Source of the DNA: Candidatus Bipolaricaulota bacterium | GTDB taxonomy: Bacteria > Bipolaricaulota > Bipolaricaulia > Bipolaricaulales > Bipolaricaulaceae | Length of the DNA stretch: 32,407 bases | Assembly (NCBI GenBank): GCA_021159405.1 | Contig: JAGGRX010000021.1 | Coordinates: forward strand, 1 to 32,407 | Direction: 5' to 3' | Shown here: positions 5,168-23,656 of the stretch, one piece after another | How the letters are laid out: each line of letters opens with the position of its first letter | Numbering within the stretch: the first letter of the stretch is position 1 | Notes under the pieces: model-generated | Database searches by the model: none | What the model was told of the DNA's origin: nothing | What the model saw: the letters and a program-made list of their open reading frames with translations, nothing else | Program-made: the position numbers and the translations under genes

Positions 5168-5586
5168 GAGCTATTTTTTAGGAACGCCTCTGCTTTGCGC
5201 AGGACCTCCCGCTGTTCCTCATGGGTGATCTGCCGCAGCGCTTCCTGATAGGGGAGCCACCGCATGTCCCCGATCTCCCCGGGGGCAGGGCGGCCAACTT
5301 CATCGGTACGGGCCAGGAAAAAGGTAACCTCCTTTTCCACCGGTTGACCACCCCGGAAGAAGCGGTAGGTGATCTTCTCCTGAAAGTCAGCTTGTGGCCT
5401 CAGACGCTCGATCCCCACTTCCTCAGCGACCTCCCTTCGGGCGGCGGAAAATTCATCCTCTCCCGGCTCGATGTGCCCTTTAGGGAACCCCCAATGGCCG
5501 CCCCGCCGGTTGCGGACGATCAAGTACTCGCGCCGGCCCGAAAAGTCGCGGAACAGGATGAAGCCCGCGGCACGTTCCCGGACCAT
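5164..5586 (-). CDS. NUDIX hydrolase (Ap4A-hydrolase / RNA-pyrophosphohydrolase-like)
   Basis: Nudix box GHWGFPKGHIEPGEDEFSAARREVAEEVG. I chose the ATG at 5586 (MVRERAAGFILF), 4 nt downstream of the rpoB stop codon (5591-5593). The longer track ORF (to 5622) would overlap rpoB. Confidence 0.85.
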   Translation of the reverse strand: MVRERAAGFILFRDFSGRREYLIVRNRRGGHWGFPKGHIEPGEDEFSAARREVAEEVGIERLRPQADFQEKITYRFFRGGQPVEKEVTFFLARTDEVGRPAPGEIGDMRWLPYQEALRQITHEEQREVLRKAEAFLKNSS

Positions 5587-5590
5587 GGAA

Positions 5591-8500
5591 TCATACGATG
5601 TCGAGCTCCCGGTCGCTTGCATCGTAGGCCTTGGGGGCCAGGCCCAGACACTGGAGCTCCCGCCATAGGACCCGGAACGACTCTGGGATGCCGGGCTTAG
5701 GAAAATCCTCCCCCCTTAGGATCGCCTTATAGAGCTGCACCCTGCCCCTGGCGTCGTCGGACTTCACCGTGAGCATCTCTTGAAGGAGCGATGCTGCCCC
5801 GTAGGCCTCAAGCGCCCACACCTCCATCTCGCCCAAGCGCTGCCCGCCGAACTGGGCCTTGCCTCCCAATGGCTGCTGGGTGATGAGGGCATAAGGGCCG
5901 GTGGAGCGGGCGTGGATCTTGTCCGCGGCGATGTGCTCAAGCTTGAGCAGGTACATTACCCCCACCGTCACCGGGGCCTTGAACGGCTCCCCAGTGCGCC
6001 CATCCCGGAGCACCACCTTCCCATCCTGTCTCTTCCCATCGGAAAGCCCCCGCGCCTTGAGCTCCTCGGTGAGCTCCGACAGGATCTCCTCCTCCCGAGC
6101 GCCATCGAACACCGGGCTGGCCACCTTCTCCCCCCGCAGGGCGGCCAGCCACCCCAGGTTCGTCTCGAAGATCTGCCCCAGGTTCATGCGGGAGGGAACC
6201 CCGAGGGGGTTGAGCACTACGTCCAGGGGCGTGCCGTCCGGAAGGAAGGGCATGTCCTCTTCTGGGAGGATCTTGGCGATGACGCCCTTGTTCCCGTGTC
6301 GGCCAGCGAGCTTGTCCCCCACGGCGATGCGCCGCCGCTGCGCCACATACACCTTCACCAGCTCGTTCACCCCGGCCTCAAGCTCGTCCCCAGCCGCCCG
6401 GGAAAGCCGCTTCACCCGGATCACGGTGGCCGTGCCGGTGATGGGAGGCATTTTCAGCGATGTATTACGAAAGTTACGCATCTTCTCCCCAAAGATCGAC
6501 CGGAAGATGCGCTCCTCCGGCGTGGGTTCGGCCTCGCCTTTGGGGGTGATCTTCCCCACCAGGACGTCCCCAGTCCTCACCTCGGTCCCCACCCGCACGA
6601 CCCCGTGCTCGTCGAGGTTGCGAAGGTCCTCCTTGGAGAGATTGGGGATGTCGGCGGTGATCTCCTCGGGGCCGAGCTTCGTCTCCTCTGCCCGGACCTC
6701 GAACTCCTGGATGTGGATGGAGTCGAGCACGTTGTCCCTTACCAGGCGCTCTGAGATCACGATGGCATCCTCGTAGTTGTAGCCCTCGAAGGGGAGGAAT
6801 CCCACGAGCAGGTTCGTGCCCAAGGCGAGCTCTCCATCTTGGGTGGACTGGGAGTCGGCAAGCACCTCCCCCCGCTTGACCTTGTCCCCAGGCCTCACCA
6901 AGGGGCGATGGTGGAGCAATGTGTCCTGGTTTGAGCGCTCAAAGTTGAGGAGCCGGTAAGTCCTCCGGATCGCCCCGGAGCGGACCACGATCTTTTGGGC
7001 ATCCACCTTCTCCACCACGCCATCCTGCTCACATAACACCACCGCACCGGAGTCCCGGGCTGCTTTCCCCTCCATGCCCGTCCCCACGATGGGCGCCTGG
7101 GGCCGCAGAAGCGGCACGGCCTGCCGTTGCATGTTGGCCCCCATGAGTGCCCGGTTGGCGTCATCGTGCTCGAGGAACGGGATCAAGGAGGCGGACACGC
7201 CCACGATCGTACGGGGGGAGACCTCGATGAAGTCCACTTCCTCAGGGGGCACGAACATGATCTCCTCCCGGCCGGTGCGGATGGGGACGCGCTCGTCAAG
7301 GATGCGCCCGTCCTCGTCCACTTTTATCGTGGCCGGGGCAATACGGTAGTTTTGCTCCTCATCGGCCATTAAGTATTCGATCTTGCCAGTGACGCGGCCG
7401 TTTTCGACCCGCACATAGGGGGCTTCCAGGAACCCATAATCATTCACCCGGGCGTAGACGGCCATGGAGGTGATGAGGCCGATGTTCTGGCCCTCCGGGG
7501 TCTCGATGGGACAGATGCGGCCGTAGTGAGAGGGGTGGACGTCCCTGACCTCGATCTTGGCCCGGCGCGCTGACACCCCCCCAAGGGCCGAAAGCCTCCG
7601 CTTGTGGGTGAGCTCCGATAGGGGGTTTGTCTGCTCCAGGAACTGGGAGAGCCGTCCCGTGTAAAACAGCATGTTGACCGCTGCCTGAACGGTGCGGGCG
7701 GAAACGATCTTGCGGATCACGTCCCGATCGTTAAGGTCCACCCGGGACAGCTTGTCTTGGGCGATCCTCGCCATGCGTACAAGGCCCGCCCGTAGGGCGG
7801 CCTGGGCTTGCTCCCCGGGAAGCCGCACCCTCTTGTTGGCCAGGTGATCCTTCTCATCCAACAGCTTCGGATCCTCCGGGGCCCGGATGAGCAGGTCAAG
7901 CGCCCGGAAGATGTCCTCCGGAGTTAGGTACGTCTCCTCCCGATCGATCCCCAGCTTTCGGTTCAGCTTAAACCGCCCGATCGGGGTGAGCCGATACGTC
8001 TCCGGCTCGAAGTACAGGCTCCTCAGATACTCCAACATCTGCCCAAAGGCGGGCCGATCGCTGGAACGGAACCGGTGGTAGATATAGCGGACCGCCTCCT
8101 CTTGGGTGGCGGTCTTGTCCTCCTGCAGGGCCTTGGCCACCGCCGGGTGGACGATGCGGATGCTGCCCCGCCCCAGGGACGTGAGCTTCTTGAGCCGGGC
8201 CTGCGAGAGTTCCTCCCCGACCTCCCAACGCTCGCCGTCCACCTCCAGGGATTCGGCCAAAAACGCAGTCTTCCAAGCGCCCAAACGATCGGGAAGCTCA
8301 GCCACCGGTACCTCGATGGAATACCGGGTGAGCATTTCCCCGGTCTCCATCCCCAAAGCTCGCAGGAAACAGGTAACCGGCACCTTGCCCCGACGATCCA
8401 AGTTGGCCCGCAACGTCCAGCGGCGGATATCGAGGTCGATCTCCAGCCATGCCCCAAGCTCCGGCAGAAAGTGTGCCCGGAAAAGATGGGGTTCCTCTTG

Positions 8501-8908
8501 GGTGATGTAAAGGCCAGGGGAACGGGCTAGCTCGTTGACAAGCGCGTTCTCTGTGCCGTTGATGATGAACGTGGCCCGGGAGGTCATGAGGGGGATGTCG
8601 GCTAGGTACAGCTCCGCCTCTTTGATCAGGCGGTCTGCGGACTTGAGGCGCCCGATGACCCGGAGTGGGGCCGCGTAGGTCAAGTCCATGAGCCGACATT
8701 CCCATTCGTCGTGTCTCGGATCCCCGAGGTGTGGGTCCACGAGTTCCAATACCAGGTCTTCCCGCCCAGGGGACTTGATCGGGGACACCTCGGCGAACAC
8801 CTCGGCGATCCCCTGGGTGAGAAAACGCTCATAAGACCGCCGCTGATCGGCGGTCAGGTCGGGAGGATCCATCCACTCCCGCGCACGTCCGTACCAGCGC
8901 CGTGACAT
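5591..8908 (-). CDS. rpoB: DNA-directed RNA polymerase subunit beta
   Basis: 1105-aa ORF with hallmark beta-subunit blocks: FIINGTE..RSPG, NMQRQAVPL, GRHGNKGV, LGGKAQFGGQRLGEMEVWALEAYGAA. The C-terminus PESFRVLWRELQCLGL looks complete. Confidence 0.97.
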   Translation of the reverse strand: MSRRWYGRAREWMDPPDLTADQRRSYERFLTQGIAEVFAEVSPIKSPGREDLVLELVDPHLGDPRHDEWECRLMDLTYAAPLRVIGRLKSADRLIKEAELYLADIPLMTSRATFIINGTENALVNELARSPGLYITQEEPHLFRAHFLPELGAWLEIDLDIRRWTLRANLDRRGKVPVTCFLRALGMETGEMLTRYSIEVPVAELPDRLGAWKTAFLAESLEVDGERWEVGEELSQARLKKLTSLGRGSIRIVHPAVAKALQEDKTATQEEAVRYIYHRFRSSDRPAFGQMLEYLRSLYFEPETYRLTPIGRFKLNRKLGIDREETYLTPEDIFRALDLLIRAPEDPKLLDEKDHLANKRVRLPGEQAQAALRAGLVRMARIAQDKLSRVDLNDRDVIRKIVSARTVQAAVNMLFYTGRLSQFLEQTNPLSELTHKRRLSALGGVSARRAKIEVRDVHPSHYGRICPIETPEGQNIGLITSMAVYARVNDYGFLEAPYVRVENGRVTGKIEYLMADEEQNYRIAPATIKVDEDGRILDERVPIRTGREEIMFVPPEEVDFIEVSPRTIVGVSASLIPFLEHDDANRALMGANMQRQAVPLLRPQAPIVGTGMEGKAARDSGAVVLCEQDGVVEKVDAQKIVVRSGAIRRTYRLLNFERSNQDTLLHHRPLVRPGDKVKRGEVLADSQSTQDGELALGTNLLVGFLPFEGYNYEDAIVISERLVRDNVLDSIHIQEFEVRAEETKLGPEEITADIPNLSKEDLRNLDEHGVVRVGTEVRTGDVLVGKITPKGEAEPTPEERIFRSIFGEKMRNFRNTSLKMPPITGTATVIRVKRLSRAAGDELEAGVNELVKVYVAQRRRIAVGDKLAGRHGNKGVIAKILPEEDMPFLPDGTPLDVVLNPLGVPSRMNLGQIFETNLGWLAALRGEKVASPVFDGAREEEILSELTEELKARGLSDGKRQDGKVVLRDGRTGEPFKAPVTVGVMYLLKLEHIAADKIHARSTGPYALITQQPLGGKAQFGGQRLGEMEVWALEAYGAASLLQEMLTVKSDDARGRVQLYKAILRGEDFPKPGIPESFRVLWRELQCLGLAPKAYDASDRELDIV

Positions 8909-8917
8909 AGACAGATG

Positions 8918-8938
8918 GGGCCACCGTGAAGGTGGCCC
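8918..8938 (-). promoter_or_regulatory. GC-rich hairpin in the rplL-rpoB spacer, between a strong SD-like element and the rpoB AUG
   Basis: GGGCCACC (8918-8925) pairs with GGTGGCCC (8931-8938) around a 5-nt loop. On the mRNA strand AAAGGAGGTGA (8941-8951) lies upstream of it. Only 9 nt separate the hairpin from ATG 8908. Confidence 0.4.
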
Positions 8939-8955
8939 GTCACCTCCTTTATTTG

Positions 8956-9333
8956 CTACTTGAGTTCGACTTCTGCGCCAGCGGCCTCAAGCTTCTTCTT
9001 CAGCTCCTCGGCCTCATCGGGGCTTACGCCCGCCTTGATGACGGCGGGGAGCTTGTCCACAAGTTCTTTGCACTCCTTAAGCCCCTTTCCAGTGATCTCC
9101 TTTACCGCCTTGATGAGCTGGATCTTCTGCTGGCCGGCATTCGTTACCACGACGTCCACCGTGGACTTCTCCTCGGCAGCTCCCTCGGCCCCAGCCTGCG
9201 GGGCGGCCGCCACCGCCACGGGCACCGCCGCCTGGGCGGAAACCCCGAACCGCTCCTCGATGGCCGACACGAGCTCGGCCAGTTCCTTGACCGACATCTC
9301 CTCGATGGCCTGTAGGATCTCCTCTTTCGTCAT
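8956..9333 (-). CDS. rplL: 50S ribosomal protein L7/L12
   Basis: 125 aa: [22 protein letters not shown] ... [19 protein letters not shown] ... [14 protein letters not shown]. Confidence 0.95.
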
Positions 9334-9336
9334 CGC

Positions 9337-9861
9337 TCACCCCTTCTCTTCTTTTTGTTTTTTGACTTCCGCCAGGGCCACGGCCAGCCCCCGGATGATC
9401 CCCGCCAGGGCCACGGCCAGCTCCCGGATCGGCCCGGCCAGCCCCCCCGCCAGCCGCCCCAGGAGCTCTTCACGTGAGGGTAACGTGGCGTACCATTCCA
9501 CCTGTTCCGGAGGTACCGGCTCGCCCTCAAACAGGCCTGCCTTGATGCGGAAATGGCCGTATTTTTTGGTACACTCCTGGGCCACCTTATATGGGACCGT
9601 TGGGTCATCCCGACCCACGATGATGGCGTTCGGTCCCCGCAGGTAGTCCAGCAAGAACTCCGCCCCGGCTTGGCTGGCCGCGCGACGGGCCAGGGTGTTC
9701 TTGATAACGCGAAACTCCACCCCCCGCTTTCGCATCAGCCGGCGGAGCTCCACACACTCGTTTGCGGTAAGCCCCAGGTAGTCCACCAGCACCACGGACC
9801 GGGCCTGGGCTAGCTTTTCCTTCAACTCCTCCACTTGTGCGACCTTCTCCGGCCTCGGCAT
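9337..9861 (-). CDS. rplJ: 50S ribosomal protein L10
   Basis: 174 aa: MPRPEKVAQVEELKEKL ... VDYLGLTANECVELRRLMRKRGVEFRVIKNTLARRA. Sits in the canonical position between rplA and rplL. Confidence 0.95.
   Translation of the reverse strand: MPRPEKVAQVEELKEKLAQARSVVLVDYLGLTANECVELRRLMRKRGVEFRVIKNTLARRAASQAGAEFLLDYLRGPNAIIVGRDDPTVPYKVAQECTKKYGHFRIKAGLFEGEPVPPEQVEWYATLPSREELLGRLAGGLAGPIRELAVALAGIIRGLAVALAEVKKQKEEKG
9370..9435 (-). repeat. Tandem 33-bp duplication inside the rplJ 3' end (two 11-aa units of the L7/L12-binding helix)
   Basis: Unit 1 (9370-9402) is cgccagggccacggccagcccccggatgatccc. Unit 2 (9403-9435) is cgccagggccacggccagctcccggatcggccc. They differ at 4 of 33 positions. They encode GIIRGLAVALA and GPIRELAVALA. 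Confidence 0.8.
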
Positions 9862-9870
9862 CCTTCCCCC

Positions 9871-10572
9871 TTACACGCCCTGGGCCAATTTGACGAGCTC
9901 GCCCTCGTCCACGTGGATCCCGGGCCCCATGGTGGAGGAGATGGTCACCCGCTGGATGTACTTGCCTTTCGCCCCCTCGGGCTTCCGGTCCAGGATGGCC
10001 CGGGTGAGGGTGGCGAGGTTTTCCACGAGCTGATCCACCTCGAAGTCGACCCGCCCGAACGGGGCGTGCACGATCCCGTAGCGATCGGCGCGGAACTCGA
10101 TCATCCCCGCCTTGAGCTCCCGGACGAGCCTGCCGATGTCCTGGGTCACCGTCCCCGTTTTGGGGGAGGGCATGAGGCCCCGGGGGCCCAGGATCCGCCC
10201 GAGCTTCCCCACCAGGGGCATCATATCCGGCGTGGCCGCCACCCGGTCGAACTCCAGCCACCCCTCCCGGATCCGCTCGGCGAGCTCCTCGCCCCCCACG
10301 TAGTCGGCACCGGCTTCCTCCGCCTCCCGGATCTTCTCCCCCCGGGCGAACACCAGGACCCGCACCGTCTTTCCGGTCCCGTGAGGCAGGGAACACGCCC
10401 CCCGCACCATGTGCTGGGACGGATTTATCCCCAGATTAAACGCCGCCTCAGCCGTCTCGGGGAACCGGGCGGTGGCGAGCTTCTTCATGAGCTCAATCCC
10501 CTCCCGCACCGGATAGACCCGCTCCCGCTCCAGTGTGGCCACAAGCTCGCGGTACCTGCGGCTCCTTTTCAC
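9871..10572 (-). CDS. rplA: 50S ribosomal protein L1
   Basis: 233 aa: [27 protein letters not shown] ... [12 protein letters not shown] ... [25 protein letters not shown]. Confidence 0.95.
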
Positions 10573-11006: not shown

Positions 11007-12107
11007 TCAAATCCTCTCGATGGCGTCAAAACCCAGGCGTACCGGCGTCTCCCGACCGAAGATCTTGACGGATACCACCACCTCTTCGGCTTCTTTGTCG
11101 ATCTCCTTGATCTCCCCGGTGAAGTCGGCGAACGGCCCTTCCACGATCTGCACCACCTCGCCGACCTCGAACTCCACCTCCACCTTGGGCGCCTTGGCCT
11201 TGGAAGGCGCCTCCTCCAGGCCGGCCTTCCGCTGGATTAAGAGCATCTCCCGTCCCTCGATGGGGATGGGCCGAAACCTGGATCCGACGAACCTCACGGA
11301 CCCCTCGAGCCCCCGCAGGAGCTCGAACATCTGCTCCTCGTCAAGGCCCATCTTGGCAAACACGTATCCTGGGATGAGCCGTCTTTTCTCGATCCTCTGG
11401 ACCGTGACCACCCGCTTGTCCTTGTACTCCTTCACCTTCACCAAGCCGGTGGCCCGGGAGTAAATCTTGTGCTCGCGCTCGATCTCCGCGCCTTTGGGCA
11501 GCTGTTGTCCCTCCCTGAGCCGGGGGGGGAGATAGGCCTCGGGGATGATGCGCCTTTCCTCGCTCCCATCCTCATAGCGAATGGTGACCCTCCTCACCCG
11601 CTCCCGGGCAACGATCTGTCCCTTGACATCGATCAGGTAGTGCTCGTCCGCATCGGGGGTGATCGGGATCCCGGGTCGCACCCGTTCCCCCACCCGGATG
11701 TCCCTGCGCAACCCCTTCTCCTGCGGCACCAGATATTCCACCTCGGCCCGGTTGGTGAGCTCCACTATGATCCGCCACAACGGCTCGATCTTCTCCACCG
11801 TGGCAGGCTGCGGAAGGTGCCGTGGGGCCCGCCGGGCGATGAGGTCACCCCGCTGGACCCGCTCGTTGGTCTTCACAAACAGCTCGTAGTCGTAGGGGAT
11901 CCGATACTCGCTCGAGCGCCCCCTGCGGGACCGGGAGGTGATCACTTCCTCCACCGGGACGAAGAAGTACTCCACCTCCCCGTTGGTCTTGATGGGCTCG
12001 AAATACCTCTCCCATCCGAGCTTGCGTACCCGCTCCTCAAGCTGGCGCTTCACGCGAAGCTCGGAACCCGCATAGGTCTGAATGGCATACCACTTCTTAC
12101 GCTGCAT
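11007..12107 (-). CDS. nusG: Transcription termination/antitermination factor NusG with a ~180-aa insertion inside the NGN domain
   Basis: N-terminal NGN start KKWYAIQTYAGSELRVKRQLE. The NGN resumes at RRLIPGYVFAKM...VRFVG. C-terminal KOW is FEVGEVVQIVEGPFADFTGEIKEID. Sits in the canonical secE-nusG-rplK position. Total 366 aa, versus about 180 aa for typical NusG. Confidence 0.9.
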   Translation of the reverse strand: MQRKKWYAIQTYAGSELRVKRQLEERVRKLGWERYFEPIKTNGEVEYFFVPVEEVITSRSRRGRSSEYRIPYDYELFVKTNERVQRGDLIARRAPRHLPQPATVEKIEPLWRIIVELTNRAEVEYLVPQEKGLRRDIRVGERVRPGIPITPDADEHYLIDVKGQIVARERVRRVTIRYEDGSEERRIIPEAYLPPRLREGQQLPKGAEIEREHKIYSRATGLVKVKEYKDKRVVTVQRIEKRRLIPGYVFAKMGLDEEQMFELLRGLEGSVRFVGSRFRPIPIEGREMLLIQRKAGLEEAPSKAKAPKVEVEFEVGEVVQIVEGPFADFTGEIKEIDKEAEEVVVSVKIFGRETPVRLGFDAIERI

Positions 12108-14273: not shown

Positions 14274-14301
14274 ATTCTAGTTCGTCCCTCCCCCCTGTCA
14301 A
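14274..14301 (-). promoter_or_regulatory. Near-consensus sigma70-type promoter for the tRNA-tuf operon
   Basis: On the minus strand: TTGACA (14301-14296), 16-nt spacer, TAGAAT (14279-14274). The -10 element ends 12 nt upstream of the mature tRNA-Thr(TGT) 5' end. Confidence 0.45.
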
Positions 14302-14386
14302 ATCGGTGCGCTGGATGCCCCGAAGGGGTCATGGCAATATTGTCTACAAGTAGCGCAGCGTTTCCAGGAGCGAAAGGAGGTACCGG

Positions 14387-17110
14387 ATGAAAGCCCATTG
14401 GGGCGGCCTTGTCGCTGTAGCCTTGGTGCAGTCCCTCTTATTTGGAGCTTCCCTCACCCCCTCTTACGAGATCGAGGTTCGTTTGGACACAGAGCAGCAT
14501 GTGCTCCTCGGCAGGGAAAGCATTCTCCTTGCGAATACCAGCGGTGAGGTGCTGGACGAGCTCTATCTCCACCTTTACCCGAATAGGTTCATGGATGAGT
14601 TGAGCATCTACGCCAGGGAAAAGGGGATCGATGCCTACGATCGGCTGTTCCCTGCGGGGCCCGATACGGGCTATATCTTCATCGAGGAGCTCACATTGAA
14701 CGGCGAGGCCTCTAGCTACACGATAGACGACACGATCATGCGGGTCGACTTGGAAAACCCGCTTTTGCCAGGCGATTCCATCCAGCTCCGGCTGAAGTTC
14801 CAGGTGAAGATCCCCCATGCAATCGCCAGGTTCGGCTACGACAGCGGAAACTACTACTTCTCCTGGTGGTATCCTCGACTGGCGGCCTACGATGAGGAGG
14901 GCTGGCACCCCTATCAGGCCTGCGGCACCTTCCCGGACGAGCCCTACGATAACTTCGCCTCCTACCGGGTAGGGATCACCGTGCCACACGGAATGGTGGT
15001 GGGGGCCACAGGAAACCTCGAGGCCTCCGTGGAAAACCCCGACGGCACCGAGAGGCTGATCTACACCGCGGAGAACGTCCACGACTTCGCCTGGGTCGCC
15101 GATCGACGGTATAAGGTGCAAACCGCTTCCTGGAACGGGATCACCATCCGCTCGCTCTACTTCCCGGAGGATGCCGCGGCCGGGAAGCGCGCCGTTCAGT
15201 ATGCCAAGGATGCCCTGGCCTACTTCAGCGCCCGCTACGGGGAGTACCCCTACAAGAACTTCACCGTCGCCGAGACCCGGATGGTCGGGGGAGCGATGGA
15301 GTATCCGCAACTCATCATGGTCACCTACCAGTTCTACCGCCTGCCCGCGTTTCTCACCGGCCTGGAGGAGGTGATCGCCCACGAGACCTCGCACCAGTGG
15401 TTCTACGGGATGCTGATGAACGATCAGACGAACGAGGCGTGGCTGGATGAGGGCTTCGCCACCTTCTCCGAGATTAGCTACATGGAATACAAATACGGAA
15501 GAGATGGAAACATGTTCGATCCCTCTGAGCTTGAAAAAATCCCGGTTGTCGGCCCTCTCCTTTTGGAGGCCGGTGCGGCGAAGTCCCTCCCAAGCGTGAG
15601 GGAGCAGACGTTGGTAGGTCCGTATATCGCAACTGCTCGATTGGGGACGGAGGCACCGCTCCTCACCCCACGGGATGAGATTGAGCCCGGAAAACAACCG
15701 CTCGTCTACCAACGAGGAGCACTTACCTTGTTTTCACTACAGTATCTGGTAGGAGAAGAGACCTTCGACAAAATTATCAAAACATACGTGGAACGCTATC
15801 GGTTCAAGCACGTGACAACGGGGGATTTCATCGAGGTGGCCGAGGAGGTGAGCGGCCAGGAGCTGGGATGGTTCTTCGACGAGTGGCTCCGCTCTACCGA
15901 GCGACTGGACTACGTGCTTGAAGGGGTGTCCACTCATAAGATCGGAGACAAGTGCGTCACCCGGGTGGCCATCCACAACGCGGGCGAGCTTCTGATGCCA
16001 GTCGGCGTTCAGGTGACCCTGAAGGGTGGGGAGGACGAGGAGAAGGTCAGCAAGCGGTTCTGGCCGCTTGACCGCCGGGGGACGCTCACCTTCGTCACCG
16101 ATCGGCCGGTCAAGTCCGTGGTGATCGACCCGGAGGGGCTCCTCCCCGACATCAACCCCGCGAACAACCGGCTCAGTCCCCCGCTCAACATCTCACCACT
16201 GGTGAAGCCAGAAACCCAGAGAGAGGATGGCCTCGTCGTGGGGATAAGCTTTTCCACTCCCGACGCCCGCATCGCTGGCGACCTCGGCTATGCCACGGGA
16301 ATCCAGAGGCCCGTTTACTCCTTAAGCTTTACCTCCTCTCCGTGGATCGAGGCAGGGAGGTTGACGGGGAGGGGAAGGGGCTTTAGTTTTCGCTTCAACC
16401 TCGCAAGCGATGGGCATGTCTTCTCCGCAGCGCTTAACGCTGGCCATCACTTCTCCGTTTGGATGTCGGACTCCGTCAAGTGGTTCAACGCCCTGGAGGC
16501 CCGGCCGTTCTACAAGAACCTCTACGATGCCCGCGGCGATCGGGGCATCGTAAGCGGGATAGAGCTGGACGAAAAATTCGCCCTGGAAAGCAAACAAGGC
16601 TGGAAGGCTTCCCTTAACCTGAATTATCAGGGCTCATTCGCTGCGTTGGGAAGTGACTTTCCTTTTGAGAAATGCTCCCTTGAAATGCGGCTGAGGCAGC
16701 GCATCTTTTGGCGTACCCACCTCAACGGGCGGCTATCCCTCGGCGTGCTCCAAGGGAAAACCCCCAGCGGTGAAGGTCGGTTCGACATCCGGAAGGATGC
16801 GGGCTTCCGCACCTTTTCCCGCAAGGATGAACTCGCAGTGGCCCTGAACCTCTCCCTTCACCTTCCCATCCGGCGGCTCAACAAGGTAGACCTCGGGCCG
16901 GTCCCGATCTCCTTCGGCCTCAGCATCTTCGGCGACCTCGGATGGTTTGGCGCCGGTCTCGACACGGTGCGCGCGGAGGCAGGTTGGGGGTTGACCTGCT
17001 CCCCGTATGGCTCTAACATCGGCCTCCGTTTGGAACAGGTTCTTTGGGTCAATACGAGCGAGGACGGGGGAAGCCCGGGATTCGCTGTACATGTTGATTT
17101 GGGTATGTAA
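14387..17110 (+). CDS. Secreted M1-family (gluzincin) metallopeptidase fused to a C-terminal predicted outer-membrane beta-barrel
   Basis: RBS AAAGGAGG is upstream. Signal peptide MKAHWGGLVAVALVQSLLFGA. HETSH at nt 15380-15394, with the third zinc ligand Glu in WLDEGFATF 19 residues after the second His. A beta-sandwich ends IDPEGLLPDINPANN. About 294 further residues (nt 16226-17107) consist of alternating-polarity strands. Confidence 0.85.
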   Translation: MKAHWGGLVAVALVQSLLFGASLTPSYEIEVRLDTEQHVLLGRESILLANTSGEVLDELYLHLYPNRFMDELSIYAREKGIDAYDRLFPAGPDTGYIFIEELTLNGEASSYTIDDTIMRVDLENPLLPGDSIQLRLKFQVKIPHAIARFGYDSGNYYFSWWYPRLAAYDEEGWHPYQACGTFPDEPYDNFASYRVGITVPHGMVVGATGNLEASVENPDGTERLIYTAENVHDFAWVADRRYKVQTASWNGITIRSLYFPEDAAAGKRAVQYAKDALAYFSARYGEYPYKNFTVAETRMVGGAMEYPQLIMVTYQFYRLPAFLTGLEEVIAHETSHQWFYGMLMNDQTNEAWLDEGFATFSEISYMEYKYGRDGNMFDPSELEKIPVVGPLLLEAGAAKSLPSVREQTLVGPYIATARLGTEAPLLTPRDEIEPGKQPLVYQRGALTLFSLQYLVGEETFDKIIKTYVERYRFKHVTTGDFIEVAEEVSGQELGWFFDEWLRSTERLDYVLEGVSTHKIGDKCVTRVAIHNAGELLMPVGVQVTLKGGEDEEKVSKRFWPLDRRGTLTFVTDRPVKSVVIDPEGLLPDINPANNRLSPPLNISPLVKPETQREDGLVVGISFSTPDARIAGDLGYATGIQRPVYSLSFTSSPWIEAGRLTGRGRGFSFRFNLASDGHVFSAALNAGHHFSVWMSDSVKWFNALEARPFYKNLYDARGDRGIVSGIELDEKFALESKQGWKASLNLNYQGSFAALGSDFPFEKCSLEMRLRQRIFWRTHLNGRLSLGVLQGKTPSGEGRFDIRKDAGFRTFSRKDELAVALNLSLHLPIRRLNKVDLGPVPISFGLSIFGDLGWFGAGLDTVRAEAGWGLTCSPYGSNIGLRLEQVLWVNTSEDGGSPGFAVHVDLGM

Positions 17111-17126: not shown

Positions 17127-18044
17127 ATGGAAGCAATACGTTTAGAGCAGGTAAGCAAGGGATTGGGGAAGCGCGATATCCTGAGGGATGTCAGCTTTGC
17201 GGTAAAGTCGGGGGACGTGTTCGGCTACCTCGGCCCGAACGGTGCCGGGAAGACCACCACCATCCGGGTGATCCTGGGGCTGTTTGCGCCGGATTCAGGG
17301 CGGGTGGAGGTCCTGGGGCAAGACATTTGCAAGCATCCGGAGGTGAAGCGCCGCATCGGTTTCGTGCTCGAGGCAGATGGCCTCTACGACAACCTCACCG
17401 CCCGGGAGAACCTGGCCTACTACGGCGAGATCTACGGGGTGGCCAACATCGCAGACAGGATCGATGAAGTGTTGGAGGCCGTCGGCCTGCTCGATCGGGC
17501 GGACGACCGGGTGGGAAAGTACTCGAAGGGGATGCGGCAGCGGCTGGCGCTTGCCCGGGCGGTCCTGCATGACCCGGAGCTTTTGATCCTCGATGAGCCC
17601 ACGGCGGGCCTCGACCCCACCGGCCAGATGGAGATCCGGGAGCTCATCCTGGACCTGGCCCGCCGGGGGAAGACGGTCTTCTTGAGCTCGCACAACCTCG
17701 ATGAGGTGGAGCGGATCTGCAGCCGGATCGCCATCATCCATAAGGGCGAGATCAAGCTGTGTGGCGAGGTGGAAAGGCTCAAGGAGGCGGGACGCAGGGA
17801 GCTTGAGATCAGGCTCGGCAGTCCCCTCCCCGAGGAGGCAAAGGCGGCGCTTCAGGGGCTTCCCTACCTCAAGGAATGGCGTTACGAAGGAGAGAATCTC
17901 CTCCTCTCCCTCGACGGGGAGCACGACCCCTCCGAGGTGCTGAGCCTGCTCCTCCAGAAGGGGGCGGCGATTGAGGAGGTAAGGCGCCGGGAGCTTTCCC
18001 TTGAGGAGATCTACGCCGGAATAGTGGGGAAGGAGGCCGGATGA
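17127..18044 (+). CDS. ABC transporter ATP-binding protein (ABC-2 / DrrA-NatA type)
   Basis: Start trimmed to ATG 17127 (MEAIRLEQVSKGLG). Walker A GPNGAGKTT, signature YSKGMRQRLALA, Walker B LLILDEPTAGLD, H-loop SSHNL. Confidence 0.9.
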   Translation: MEAIRLEQVSKGLGKRDILRDVSFAVKSGDVFGYLGPNGAGKTTTIRVILGLFAPDSGRVEVLGQDICKHPEVKRRIGFVLEADGLYDNLTARENLAYYGEIYGVANIADRIDEVLEAVGLLDRADDRVGKYSKGMRQRLALARAVLHDPELLILDEPTAGLDPTGQMEIRELILDLARRGKTVFLSSHNLDEVERICSRIAIIHKGEIKLCGEVERLKEAGRRELEIRLGSPLPEEAKAALQGLPYLKEWRYEGENLLLSLDGEHDPSEVLSLLLQKGAAIEEVRRRELSLEEIYAGIVGKEAG

Positions 18045-18790
18045 GCTCGATAAAGGCGATCGTGAAAAAGGACCTCAAGGACACCCTCCGCTCCAGGGCC
18101 GTTTACGTGAGCCTCGGGACAGCCGTGTTGCTTCTCGTGATCTGGTCAGGGGACCTGCGGGATATGGCCGAGGGCCTTGCGGAAAAGGGCGTTCCGTCTT
18201 CCCAGGCGGCCGCTGCTCTCAAACCGATGATCAACTCCAGCGCCGTCATGTTGTCATTTGCGCTGACGATCCTCTTCGGCATGTACATCAACGGCTACGC
18301 CGTCACCATGGAGAAGATGAAGCGCTCGCTGGAGTCGCTCCTCTGCACTCCGGTGGGGCTGCGGGGAATATGGCTGGGGAAGACGCTGGCGGTGTTTGCC
18401 CCCAGCGCGATCCTTGGGGTTGCGATCACCTTTTTGGGGCTTTTCGGCATGAACGCGGCCGTGATCGAGCCGAAGCTCGGGGCCTTTATCATGCCAGACA
18501 GGGCACCGCTTTTAGCCGCCCTGGTGGGGGTGCCCGCGGTGGCCTTCCCGCTCATGCTCCTCGTCACCGGGGTTCAGCTCATCCTTAGCAATATCCGCTG
18601 GGTCAACATCGTGTTCCTGGCGCTGATATTCACCGTGGGCTTCGGGCTTTCCCAGTCGCTTAAACTTAACTCGGGCTCCTGGAGCCTCGTCGGGGTGCTG
18701 TTTGGGATCGCCGCCCTCTTGGCCCTGCTCTCCGCCTTCCTTGCCCGTTTCCTCACCCCCGAGCGGGTGGTGCTTTCGAGCAAGGGGTGA
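18041..18790 (+). CDS. ABC-2 family transporter permease
   Basis: 249 aa with about 6 TM segments. Its ATG overlaps the ATPase stop (ATGA), which suggests translational coupling. Confidence 0.8.
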   Translation: MSSIKAIVKKDLKDTLRSRAVYVSLGTAVLLLVIWSGDLRDMAEGLAEKGVPSSQAAAALKPMINSSAVMLSFALTILFGMYINGYAVTMEKMKRSLESLLCTPVGLRGIWLGKTLAVFAPSAILGVAITFLGLFGMNAAVIEPKLGAFIMPDRAPLLAALVGVPAVAFPLMLLVTGVQLILSNIRWVNIVFLALIFTVGFGLSQSLKLNSGSWSLVGVLFGIAALLALLSAFLARFLTPERVVLSSKG

Positions 18791-21798: not shown

Positions 21799-22449
21799 AT
21801 GAGGTTTCGTTCGGGAGCAGGGCAGGAGGAAGTGGCCCGCTTGATCCGGGAGCATCTGGAACAGGTGGCGGCGGCGGTGGAAGCCATGGCCGAAGGGGTT
21901 CGCGCCCTGGTTGAGGGAAAACCTGCAGCCGAACTTGCCGAGATCGCCCTGAAGACCCACGAGCGAGAGGGACGGGCAGATGACATCAGACGCAAGACCG
22001 AACTGACGTTAGTACAAGGGGCGCTGCTTGCGGGCAGACGGCGCACCCTGCTCCGACTGGTGGAGGGGGAAGACCGAGTGGCCAACGCGGCCGAGGCGGT
22101 AATGGATTACTTGGCGCTTCAGAACGTTAAGGTTCCGGAGCTTCTCCGGCCGCTGGTGCTGCAGATCCTGCAGGAGACTCAGCGGCAGATGCAGGCCGTG
22201 AAGCTGGCCGTGGAGGCATTGGTGGAAGGGAAACCGGAGGCCGTCAAGCTGGCCGAGGAGGTCGAGTACAGGGAAGGGCGGATAGACGCCCTTGAGCGGC
22301 GGTGCATGAACCGGCTGTTCGCGGCCGACTTGCCCCTGGCGGAGAAGCTCCTCATCCGGGACTTCATCGAAAAGCTTGTGGAGATCTCGGATCGAGCCGA
22401 GGACCTGTCGGACCTGGTGTTCACCTCGATGGCGGCCAGGCAAGCATAA
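21799..22449 (+). CDS. DUF47 / PhoU-like (TIGR00153-type) protein, copy 1
   Basis: All-helical 216-aa protein with an internal duplication (ALVEGKPAAELAEIALKTHEREGRADDIRRK versus ALVEGKPEAVKLAEEVEYREGRIDALERR). The C-terminal block IRDFIEKLVEISDRAEDLSDLV is typical of the PhoU_div family. Confidence 0.65.
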   Translation: MRFRSGAGQEEVARLIREHLEQVAAAVEAMAEGVRALVEGKPAAELAEIALKTHEREGRADDIRRKTELTLVQGALLAGRRRTLLRLVEGEDRVANAAEAVMDYLALQNVKVPELLRPLVLQILQETQRQMQAVKLAVEALVEGKPEAVKLAEEVEYREGRIDALERRCMNRLFAADLPLAEKLLIRDFIEKLVEISDRAEDLSDLVFTSMAARQA

Positions 22450-22459
22450 AGGGGGAATC

Positions 22460-23656
22460 ATGGCAAAACCTTTCTGTAAGCCGAAGGTCTTTTTCTTGGT
22501 GTTGCTTTTCGCCTTTGGGATGGCTGCAGTTCAGCCGGGGCGTGCCGAACTCCAGCCGTGGACGGAGCTTGGGCCTTGGGCGAGCCCGCTTTCCCCAACC
22601 GAGGTGGCCATCTCCTGGCAGACGGAAAGCCCGGCACTCGGAATCGTATGGTATGGGCCAAGTGTGGACTGGCAAAGAACCGGGGAGCTGCCCTATAGCG
22701 TTGCCCTGTCGAAGCCGGCCGAACTCGCCCATGTGACCATTTCAGGCTTGATCCCCGGCACCCGGTACGCCTACCGGGTAAAGCTGGGAGCAGAAGTTAG
22801 CCCGATATGCTACTTTTCCACCCCACCTGAAAAATTCCAGCCCTTTACATTCCTCGTCTACGGCGATACCCGCACCAATTACGACCTGCATGCGATGGTG
22901 ACAAAGCGCATGGCGAGGGAGTCCGCGGAGTTCGTGGTACACGTGGGGGACCTGATCGAATCCCCCACCCAAACCGAGTGGCGCGCGTTCCTCAACTCTG
23001 GGGAGCTCCTACTTCGGGCGATGTCGTTTCTGTGTGTGCCCGGGAACCATGAACGCAACTCCCGTACCTATTACGAGCTGTTCCCGCTCCCCCAGGGAGG
23101 CGGCCGCTACGGGAAACAGTGGTGGTCCCTACGCTGGGGGGACGTGCTCCTGGTGGGCCTTGATTCCAACCTCCAGTACCTCAAGTTCACCGGCCTCAAG
23201 AAGGAAACGGCGTGGCTCAAAGAAGTGCTCGGGGAAGAAGCACGCTACAAGTTCGTGTTCTTACACCACCCACTGTTCAGCTCGGACCCCCACTATGGAG
23301 GGGACGAGGGTCTGGCAAAGCTCTGGCATCCCATCTTCATAGAAGCCGGGGTGACCGCGGTGTTCTGCGGCCACTGTCACAACTATGAGCACCTCGTCCG
23401 GGATGGGCTCCACTACTTCGTCACCGGAGGGGGTGGGGCCCCGTTCAGCCCCCTTTCGGACGCGCGGACAGAGGGGTCGGTACTGGGCATCGAGAACGTG
23501 CTCCATTACCTTAGGGTTTCGGTCTCAGAAGGAAAGGTGGTAGTGGAGATGGTGCCGGTGGCCGAGGTTCAAGCCGGTGAGGTGGCCGTGCTTTCCGGAG
23601 CTCCCATGGAGACCACAGAGCTTTCAAGGGCCGCCTGCGGCGTGGGAATCCCTTGA
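22460..23656 (+). CDS. Secreted purple-acid-phosphatase-like metallophosphoesterase
   Basis: Start trimmed to ATG 22460 (RBS AAAGGGGG). Signal peptide MAKPFCKPKVFFLVLLFAFGMAAVQPGRA. N-terminal FN3-like PAP domain (GLIPGTRYAYRV). Calcineurin-fold motifs GDTR, GDLIE, GNHE, LHHPLFSS, GHCHNYEH. Confidence 0.85.
   Translation: MAKPFCKPKVFFLVLLFAFGMAAVQPGRAELQPWTELGPWASPLSPTEVAISWQTESPALGIVWYGPSVDWQRTGELPYSVALSKPAELAHVTISGLIPGTRYAYRVKLGAEVSPICYFSTPPEKFQPFTFLVYGDTRTNYDLHAMVTKRMARESAEFVVHVGDLIESPTQTEWRAFLNSGELLLRAMSFLCVPGNHERNSRTYYELFPLPQGGGRYGKQWWSLRWGDVLLVGLDSNLQYLKFTGLKKETAWLKEVLGEEARYKFVFLHHPLFSSDPHYGGDEGLAKLWHPIFIEAGVTAVFCGHCHNYEHLVRDGLHYFVTGGGGAPFSPLSDARTEGSVLGIENVLHYLRVSVSEGKVVVEMVPVAEVQAGEVAVLSGAPMETTELSRAACGVGIP

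Follow-up and report, generated by a model that had tools for sequence, protein, structure and literature searches.

A POTRA-less fusion of an M1 zinc peptidase to a diverged Omp85-type barrel in Candidatus Bipolaricaulota

The 32,407-nucleotide stretch of DNA analysed here (the window; positions 1 to 32,407 of contig JAGGRX010000021.1, assembly GCA_021159405.1, from a Candidatus Bipolaricaulota bacterium) contains a gene for a 907-residue protein in which a secreted M1 zinc peptidase is followed by a strand-rich C-terminal region, referred to as the tail. A first-pass annotation, made from the sequence alone, had proposed that the tail is an Omp85/BamA-type barrel and that the protein might anchor or export its own peptidase at the cell surface. 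The fusion to an Omp85-type barrel was confirmed by transitive homology, by signature motifs and by a confident structure model, and the protein belongs to a group of POTRA-less enzyme-Omp85 fusions that is widespread, under-annotated and uncharacterised. Display at the cell surface appears unlikely. Rather, with a probability of roughly 60%, we propose an outer-membrane-anchored, periplasm-facing M1 aminopeptidase that would trim imported oligopeptides.

Homology of the C-terminal region to Omp85 barrels

Among the best 120 matches to the protein, 82 were full-length homologs of at least 870 residues, and all of the 81 that were aligned carry 290-385 residues after a conserved NN motif, at identities down to ~28%. 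Several of the distant homologs have precomputed matches to both PF01433 and PF01103, and in a re-scan P0048, P0051, P0058, P0060 and P0094 scored above the Omp85 gathering score, with P0048 reaching 47.9 bits against Pfam Omp85 (PF01103) over model positions 6-324 of 325. The tail profile of the window clade in turn matched the tails of such PF01103-positive M1 fusions (P0060 with 56 bits, P0051 with 44 bits), and comparison of 36 window-clade tails with 43 distant tails by hhalign scored 99.9% (E 6.7e-36) across 283 columns. When a profile of 25 tails was run against all PDB sequences, BamA barrels came out on top at an E value of 0.015 and nothing else meaningful was obtained. The corresponding hhalign comparison with the barrel of E. 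coli BamA gave 83% (E 8.9e-6), in which the FGDLG motif of the tail was aligned with FWDMG of BamA.

Searches seeded with tails returned members of the same family. The tail of the window protein by itself found 5 near-identical matches, and an exhaustive HMMER search with a shallow profile of 6 tails found 22 proteins, all of which were M1 fusions of ~900 residues or fragments of them; a further search with the 25-tail profile gave 6 matches and added nothing. Taken together, residues 601-907 (16187..17107; the gene and all of its features given here lie on the plus strand) very probably constitute a compact (~305 residues), sequence-diverged barrel of the Omp85 superfamily.

Predicted structure and signature motifs of the tail

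The full-length protein was modelled by AlphaFold2 (AF2) with the alignment of 81 sequences, which yielded a mean predicted local distance difference test score (pLDDT) of 92.0 and a predicted template modelling score (pTM) of 0.89. The model places 16 beta-strands after residue 600, within residues 601-903 and with pLDDT values of ~81-98, and the 14 strand segments picked out in the first-pass annotation largely coincide with them.

The longest loop of the predicted barrel is loop 6, which joins strands 11 and 12 and comprises 25 residues (791-815; 16757..16831), while the other extracellular loops measure 2-9 residues. In the published accounts drawn on here, the Omp85 lid-lock is described as two motifs, Arg-Gly-aromatic at the loop 6 tip and FxDxG in strand 13 (PMC4490367; PMC11358297). 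In the model, FRTF (residues 807-810; 16805-16816) within loop 6 and FGDLG (residues 848-852; 16928..16942) on predicted strand 13 lie at the topological positions of these two motifs, FRTF being the counterpart of the lid motif (V/L/M)RG(F/Y/W). Both are conserved among the homologs: the lid column follows the pattern [FLM]-R-[GAT]-[YF], with Arg in 57/81 and an aromatic residue in 79/81, and the lock column follows F-x-[DN]-x-[GA], with Phe in 78/81, Asp or Asn in 76/81 and Gly or Ala in 81/81. A C-terminal Phe, as in typical outer-membrane proteins, was found in 47 of the 81 homologs.

The M1 peptidase module

Residues 26-594 are, as judged from the sequence, an intact M1 gluzincin. The N-terminal beta domain (domain I, residues 26-258; 14462..15160) is all-beta with pLDDT >90 in the AF2 model. 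It is followed by the thermolysin-like catalytic domain (residues 259-505; 15161..15901), in which PF01433 (Peptidase_M1) matched residues 273-500 with 79.9 bits against a cut-off of 27.7 (E 2.6e-22), and by a six-stranded beta-sandwich (domain III, residues 506-594; 15902..16168) that ends in the conserved segment VIDPEGLLPDINPANN (residues 579-594). With the full-length AF2 model, Foldseek retrieved IRAP, ERAP1/2 and APN over ~600 columns at E values of ~1e-27 to 5e-27, domain I being covered by these matches, and the PDB sequence matches of the peptidase part were all M1 enzymes.

The HETSH-x18-E zinc motif is intact, with HETSH at residues 332-336 (15380-15394) and the distal Glu, E355 in WLDEGFATF (15449-15451), 18 residues after H336, so that H332, H336 and E355 show the expected spacing. 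The M1 motifs noted at first reading and the terminal segment VIDPEGLLPDINPANN were all recovered. The catalytic domain further contains GAMEY (residues 302-306; 15290-15304) and LVYQRGA with Y441 (15701-15721), which appears to match the Y-E/Q-K/R-G-A motif around the catalytic Tyr in PepN and LTA4H. Across the 81 homologs, E305, Y306, H332, H336 and E355 show no variation, and conservation of E333 and Y441 is at least 90%. Aminopeptidase activity and the physiological substrate proposed below are inferred.

Linker, anchor and orientation

Only six residues, RLSPPL (16169..16186), link the peptidase module to the first barrel strand, as delimited by the AF2 model and by alignment with short homologs. 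As had been suspected, no POTRA domain is apparent: PF07244 gave no match at E ≤ 10, the AF2 model contains no beta-alpha-alpha-beta-beta element, and the domain directly before the barrel is the six-strand sandwich of the M1 module.

Where the peptidase ends can also be read from barrel-less homologs of ~620 residues from other organisms (P0079-P0125), which share the IDPE...NN motif that closes the sandwich; their globular part stops at the equivalent of VIDPEGLLPDINPANN, the very point at which the peptidase had been taken to end. Such homologs (e.g., P0084 and P0111) have the same three-domain M1 module and the same IDPE...NN end at 33-36% identity, with a hydrophobic or amphipathic end of ~20 residues instead of the barrel. 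This C-terminal segment begins ~8-10 residues past the NN motif (e.g., LPLWLAAAFALLVLARHSRVRP and KLSTQCLFWLETLMHWITCF). Because the barrel-less homologs carry the hydrophobic segment at the same position, the sequences suggest that barrel and segment may be interchangeable membrane anchors of an envelope enzyme. The segments of P0079-P0125 often end in Phe, as in KLSTQCLFWLETLMHWITCF, and in a few of these proteins a clear transmembrane helix precedes a basic tail.

In solved Omp85 proteins, the first strand starts at the periplasmic rim, and loop 6 reaches into the barrel from outside. As the orientation is set by the motifs of loop 6 and strand 13, and strand 1 follows the peptidase module after only six residues, the peptidase would be located at the periplasmic mouth of the barrel, and nothing could span the lumen in the manner of a type Va linker or of the supposed type Vd linker. 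The peptidase thus most likely lies in the periplasm, anchored to the outer membrane, and surface display is unlikely.

According to the reading that we prefer, the precursor of an M1 zinc aminopeptidase with three domains (residues 22-594), exported by Sec, would cross the inner membrane, the C-terminal barrel (residues 601-907) would insert into a lipopolysaccharide (LPS)-free, toga-like outer membrane, and the folded peptidase would remain on the periplasmic face, where POTRA5 sits in BamA. There it may trim N-terminal residues of oligopeptides inside the periplasm, before their uptake, and the barrel would be mainly an outer-membrane anchor or scaffold. Both membrane insertion and periplasmic orientation are inferred.

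Alternative readings

Several observations weigh against this reading. Residues 601-907 gave no Pfam or NCBIfam match even at E ≤ 10, including searches of the tail with PF01103, PF03797 and PF07244, which had been suggested as a check of the barrel; the Omp85 assignment is therefore transitive. Among the 50 matches listed, Foldseek with the full-length model gave M1 enzymes only. The 16 strands are those of the AF2 strand assignment and not of coordinates, on which closure of the barrel, the contact R808-D850 and the placement of the peptidase against the barrel rim would depend. FRTF has Thr where the Omp85 lid motif has Gly, although Arg and the aromatic residue are kept, and the window protein ends in Met (...VHVDLGM), not Phe. 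GAMEY stands in place of the canonical GxMEN, with the Glu kept and the Asn replaced by an invariant Tyr, which makes the exopeptidase specificity uncertain. The M1-barrel family is known from sequences and models, and that this genome encodes a canonical BamA is assumed from published work on the phylum. The alternation of hydrophobic and polar residues, on which the barrel had initially been proposed, also had to be abandoned as evidence: the strands themselves exist and are conserved in the 81 homologs, but their hydrophobic/polar face contrast equals that of the soluble strands of the same protein (2.93 vs 2.93) and is hence not diagnostic. The barrel call is made because of homology, motifs and model, and not because of alternation.

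Some of these points would fit a soluble beta-rich tail whose likeness to Omp85 is spurious, namely the missing direct domain match of the window protein, the uninformative alternation and the weak PDB profile match to BamA (E 0.015), and the AF2 model of the tail from its single sequence reached a pLDDT of 39. We regard this as highly improbable in view of the profile chain to PF01103-positive homologs (99.9%), the 16 confident strands, both signature motifs at the correct topological positions and the C-terminal Phe across the family (47/81).

The conserved motifs bear in another way on the question whether the barrel is active, either by conducting peptides to the attached peptidase or as a gate of the BamA/TamA kind, in which case the peptidase would take part in quality control of unfolded envelope proteins. 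Conservation of both Omp85 motifs over 81 divergent sequences would be a constraint beyond anchoring, but the motifs may equally serve only folding and stability of the barrel. A pTM of 0.89 suggests a fixed geometry between peptidase and barrel, the extracellular loops are very short with the exception of loop 6, and a role in periplasmic quality control has been suggested for enzyme-Omp85 fusions by Heinz and Lithgow (PMC4104836). However, the protein has no POTRA domains for substrate binding, the neighbourhoods compared revealed no conserved partner genes, and M1 enzymes act on free peptide N-termini and are not known as unfoldases. We regard an active barrel as rather unlikely.

Surface display or self-export would require that the barrel translocates the M1 part as a passenger, yielding a type V-like autotransporter without POTRA, which would digest peptides outside the cell. 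The order of passenger and barrel resembles types Va and Vd, an extracellular peptidase would be useful to a phylum that ferments peptides and amino acids (PMC6092417), and the option has been raised for enzyme-Omp85 fusions (PMC4104836). Against it, six residues between module end and strand 1 leave none to cross a pore, the barrel is predicted to have 16 strands and carries lid-lock motifs, which in known Omp85 proteins plug the lumen, and the passenger is a globular fold of ~570 residues and not a beta-helix. In PlpD, the model for such display, the enzyme domain stays on the periplasmic side (PMC11116518). Compared with type Va proteins, the window protein has no PF03797 match, 16 rather than 12 strands, and six linker residues versus a lumen-spanning alpha-helical linker; type Vd combines patatin, POTRA and an Omp85 barrel, whereas the passenger here is an M1 enzyme and a POTRA is lacking. 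Surface display is thus unlikely, and the initial suggestion of a self-exporting, type V-like protein is not supported in view of the 16-strand Omp85-like barrel, the six-residue linker, the barrel-less homologs with anchors of their own and the precedent of PlpD. A POTRA-less barrel that conducts peptides to its own attached M1 aminopeptidase, or exports it, would be a 'peptide gate', which we consider quite improbable. The periplasm-facing, outer-membrane-anchored aminopeptidase remains our preferred reading.

Relation to known enzyme-Omp85 fusions

Heinz and Lithgow (2014; PMC4104836) distinguished ten Omp85 subfamilies, the POTRA-less ones including noNterm, patatin-like, 'Metallo' (PF00149) and 'WD40-like' proteins. 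In their Table S3, the Phyre2 matches of the 'WD40-like' subfamily are TolB propellers, BamA/TamA barrels and M1 aminopeptidases (1z5h, 4kxd, 3qnf, 4fgm) at ~99%; the main text makes no mention of a peptidase, and the subfamily is summed up elsewhere as having 'WD40 and peptidase domains' (PMC11358297). These proteins share with the window protein a POTRA-less C-terminal barrel behind an M1-like domain, and both are experimentally uncharacterised. They differ by an N-terminal TolB-like PD40/WD40 propeller, which the window protein does not have, and by a peptidase-like part that is missed by PF01433 (Table S2 gives PF07676, PF01103 and few others), whereas the window protein has a clear and catalytically intact PF01433 domain. 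This comparison was made by way of the published tables. The combination of an M1-like fold with an Omp85 barrel is therefore already catalogued, but with a propeller and without PF01433, discussion or experiment. The architecture had first been described as unfamiliar; this does not hold in view of the homologs with precomputed PF01433 and PF01103 matches and of Table S3, but our literature search found no paper on an M1-Omp85 fusion as such, which is not proof of absence.

The closest characterised systems are PlpD and FplA, in which an N-terminal hydrolase is likewise joined to a 16-stranded Omp85 barrel. For PlpD, long regarded as the prototype of type Vd autotransporters, a secretion model that is now disputed, protease accessibility, truncations and disulfide mapping have located the patatin domain in the periplasm, and the authors concluded that the Omp85 scaffold is re-used for new functions (PMC11116518); this periplasmic topology is the one proposed here. 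PlpD differs in that a POTRA separates its phospholipase passenger from the barrel and in that it dimerises, while the window protein has no POTRA and a zinc aminopeptidase. With BamA and TamA, the window barrel shares the 16 strands, as predicted, the Arg/aromatic motif in loop 6 and the FxDxG motif of strand 13. BamA, however, has five POTRA domains and TamA three where the window protein has none, and their barrels of ~390 residues with dome-forming loops L4 and L7 are larger than the window barrel of ~305. The noNterm and 'Metallo' proteins are also POTRA-less barrels that retain the lid-lock motifs, but the former have no N-terminal domain and the latter a calcineurin-like phosphoesterase instead of an M1 enzyme.

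Distribution and unusual homologs

The nearest relatives of the window protein are full-length metagenome proteins of 95-62% identity, including those of 'Acetothermia bacterium 64_32' and 'Candidatus Bipolaricaulota bacterium'; the homologs from Acetothermia/Bipolaricaulota metagenomes span 95%-72% identity. Among the matches listed, tail-bearing open reading frames (ORFs) also occurred in TA06 (L001), Latescibacterota (L003), Krumholzibacteriia (L005), Fermentibacteria (L059) and a Cytophagia metagenome-assembled genome (L002), and weaker full-length matches were found in the cultured Bacteroidota Hymenobacter metallicola (L042), H. negativus (L052) and Sabulibacter ruber (L022). WOR-3 and Edwardsbacteria are represented among the named database homologs. 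In the genome scan with the full alignment, the matches listed were mostly M1 genes of Bacteroidota. In nine of these tail-bearing ORFs, Pfam detects the M1 domain only. Most members thus carry a cryptic barrel and are annotated as 'M1 family metallopeptidase' or hypothetical protein.

Two homologs of ~1300 residues, P0071 and P0074, were considered as forms with a propeller, and this was rejected, as they are read-through ORFs that run into the M1-barrel gene from a polytopic membrane protein encoded upstream, which bears a HEFAH motif of its own; a signal peptide can be seen inside them. P0001, a protein of 525 residues on a 7-kb ENA contig, has ~100 residues of a metallo-beta-lactamase (MBL) fold (PF13483) in frame with the last ~425 residues of a 96%-identical M1-barrel protein. 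The latter part corresponds to window positions ~15840-17107, with the junction '...VAEEVSGQELGWFF', and P0001 probably represents a chimeric assembly or a rearrangement.

The gene, its host and its neighbourhood

The complete gene, TAA stop included, occupies 14387..17110, exactly as first reported, and is supported by the ORF list, by homologs and by synteny. A Shine-Dalgarno sequence, AAGGAGG (14374..14380), read directly from the sequence, lies 6 nt 5' of the ATG and was graded as a strong ribosome-binding site; by its sequence, the ORF is real. Residues 1-21 (14387..14449) form a predicted Sec signal peptide, MKAHWGGLVAVALVQSLLFGA, with cleavage before Ser, as also recognised in the first-pass annotation. 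It was called by eye from the shape of the sequence (n-region, h-region and FGA cleavage motif). AF2 shows a helix at residues 6-17 with pLDDT <50, and the full-length homologs have comparable N-termini, without a lipobox. A near-consensus promoter of the sigma-70 type (TTGACA-16-TAGAAT, 11/12) was found at window positions 14274-14301 on the minus strand, divergent from the M1-barrel gene and directly upstream of a tRNA-Thr(tgt)/tRNA-Tyr/tRNA-Thr(ggt)/tuf cluster; the promoter scan of the window gave no match of comparable quality for the M1-barrel gene itself.

The proposed location depends on an outer membrane, which published work describes for the host phylum. Bipolaricaulota Ran1 has no LPS genes but does have an Omp85-type gene (PMC6092417), tethering of the outer membrane by Omp-alpha/Omp-beta is described for the phylum as in Thermotogae (bioRxiv 2021.05.31.446380), and the outer membrane is detached at the poles (PMC10665443). 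For strain J31, the first isolate, cryo-electron microscopy revealed a toga-like outer membrane and an S-layer (bioRxiv 2025.11.21.689855). The phylum is thus described as an atypical diderm with an outer membrane, and an objection to the barrel that had been anticipated, namely a host without one, does not apply.

Upstream of the M1-barrel gene, the minus strand carries rpoB-rplL-rplJ-rplA-rplK-nusG-secE-tRNA-Trp-tuf-tRNAs, and downstream lie yjbQ, a gene for a CBS-domain protein and an EF-G paralog. This synteny is kept around a homolog of 72% identity in the Acetothermia 64_32-type contigs L084/L085. In the window, a DrrA-like ATP-binding cassette (ABC) ATPase and an ABC-2 permease (17127-18790, plus strand) begin 17 nt past the M1-barrel stop. 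L084/L085 lack the pair, and yjbQ directly follows the M1-barrel gene there. The ABC transporter was consequently rejected as a conserved partner and represents an indel that is missing in the 72%-identical relative. The neighbours of more distant homologs are unrelated. Because the neighbours differ between genomes, the gene stands alone and its context provides no functional partner.

Some further features of these regions were recorded. In L084/L085, an ORF of 114 residues (7670-8014) overlaps the start of the 823-residue M1-barrel call (8001-10472), which suggests a frameshift or a mis-called start in those assemblies. The NusG encoded at window positions 11007-12107 on the minus strand has 366 residues, about twice the usual size, and its homolog in L084 carries PF18298 (NusG_add), an insertion domain that occurs in Thermotoga NusG; the long NusG is consistent with the relationship between Thermotogota and Bipolaricaulota. 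At 22376-23653 on the plus strand, a metallophosphoesterase resembling purple acid phosphatases (PF00149 and PF16656) adjoins a PhoU_div gene, and the syntenic region of L084 has two PhoU_div genes and no phosphoesterase. Upstream of the PF01103-positive P0048, L086 carries lpxC/fabZ-like and lpxA-like genes and a CstA peptide transporter (5309-7371). Unlike Bipolaricaulota, the organism of P0048 makes LPS; this is a single case, and the linkage is not conserved.

Implications

Omp85 barrels are usually regarded as POTRA-bearing insertases or translocases, and the M1-barrel family provides a widespread POTRA-less carrier of a peptidase. As the barrel is invisible to Pfam in most members, surveys of outer-membrane proteomes and of Omp85 diversity undercount these proteins. 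The family would be a second system, after PlpD, for the idea that the Omp85 scaffold is re-used to keep enzymes on the inner side of the outer membrane. A transport role of the barrel, if true, would raise the significance of the fusion, and a 'peptide gate' would constitute a new functional Omp85 class, a channel-enzyme or a type V-like route, in an LPS-free, toga-type outer membrane. Few envelope proteins of Bipolaricaulota are understood, and the gene described here offers a specific protein that is predicted to reside in the outer membrane and whose enzyme activity could be assayed.

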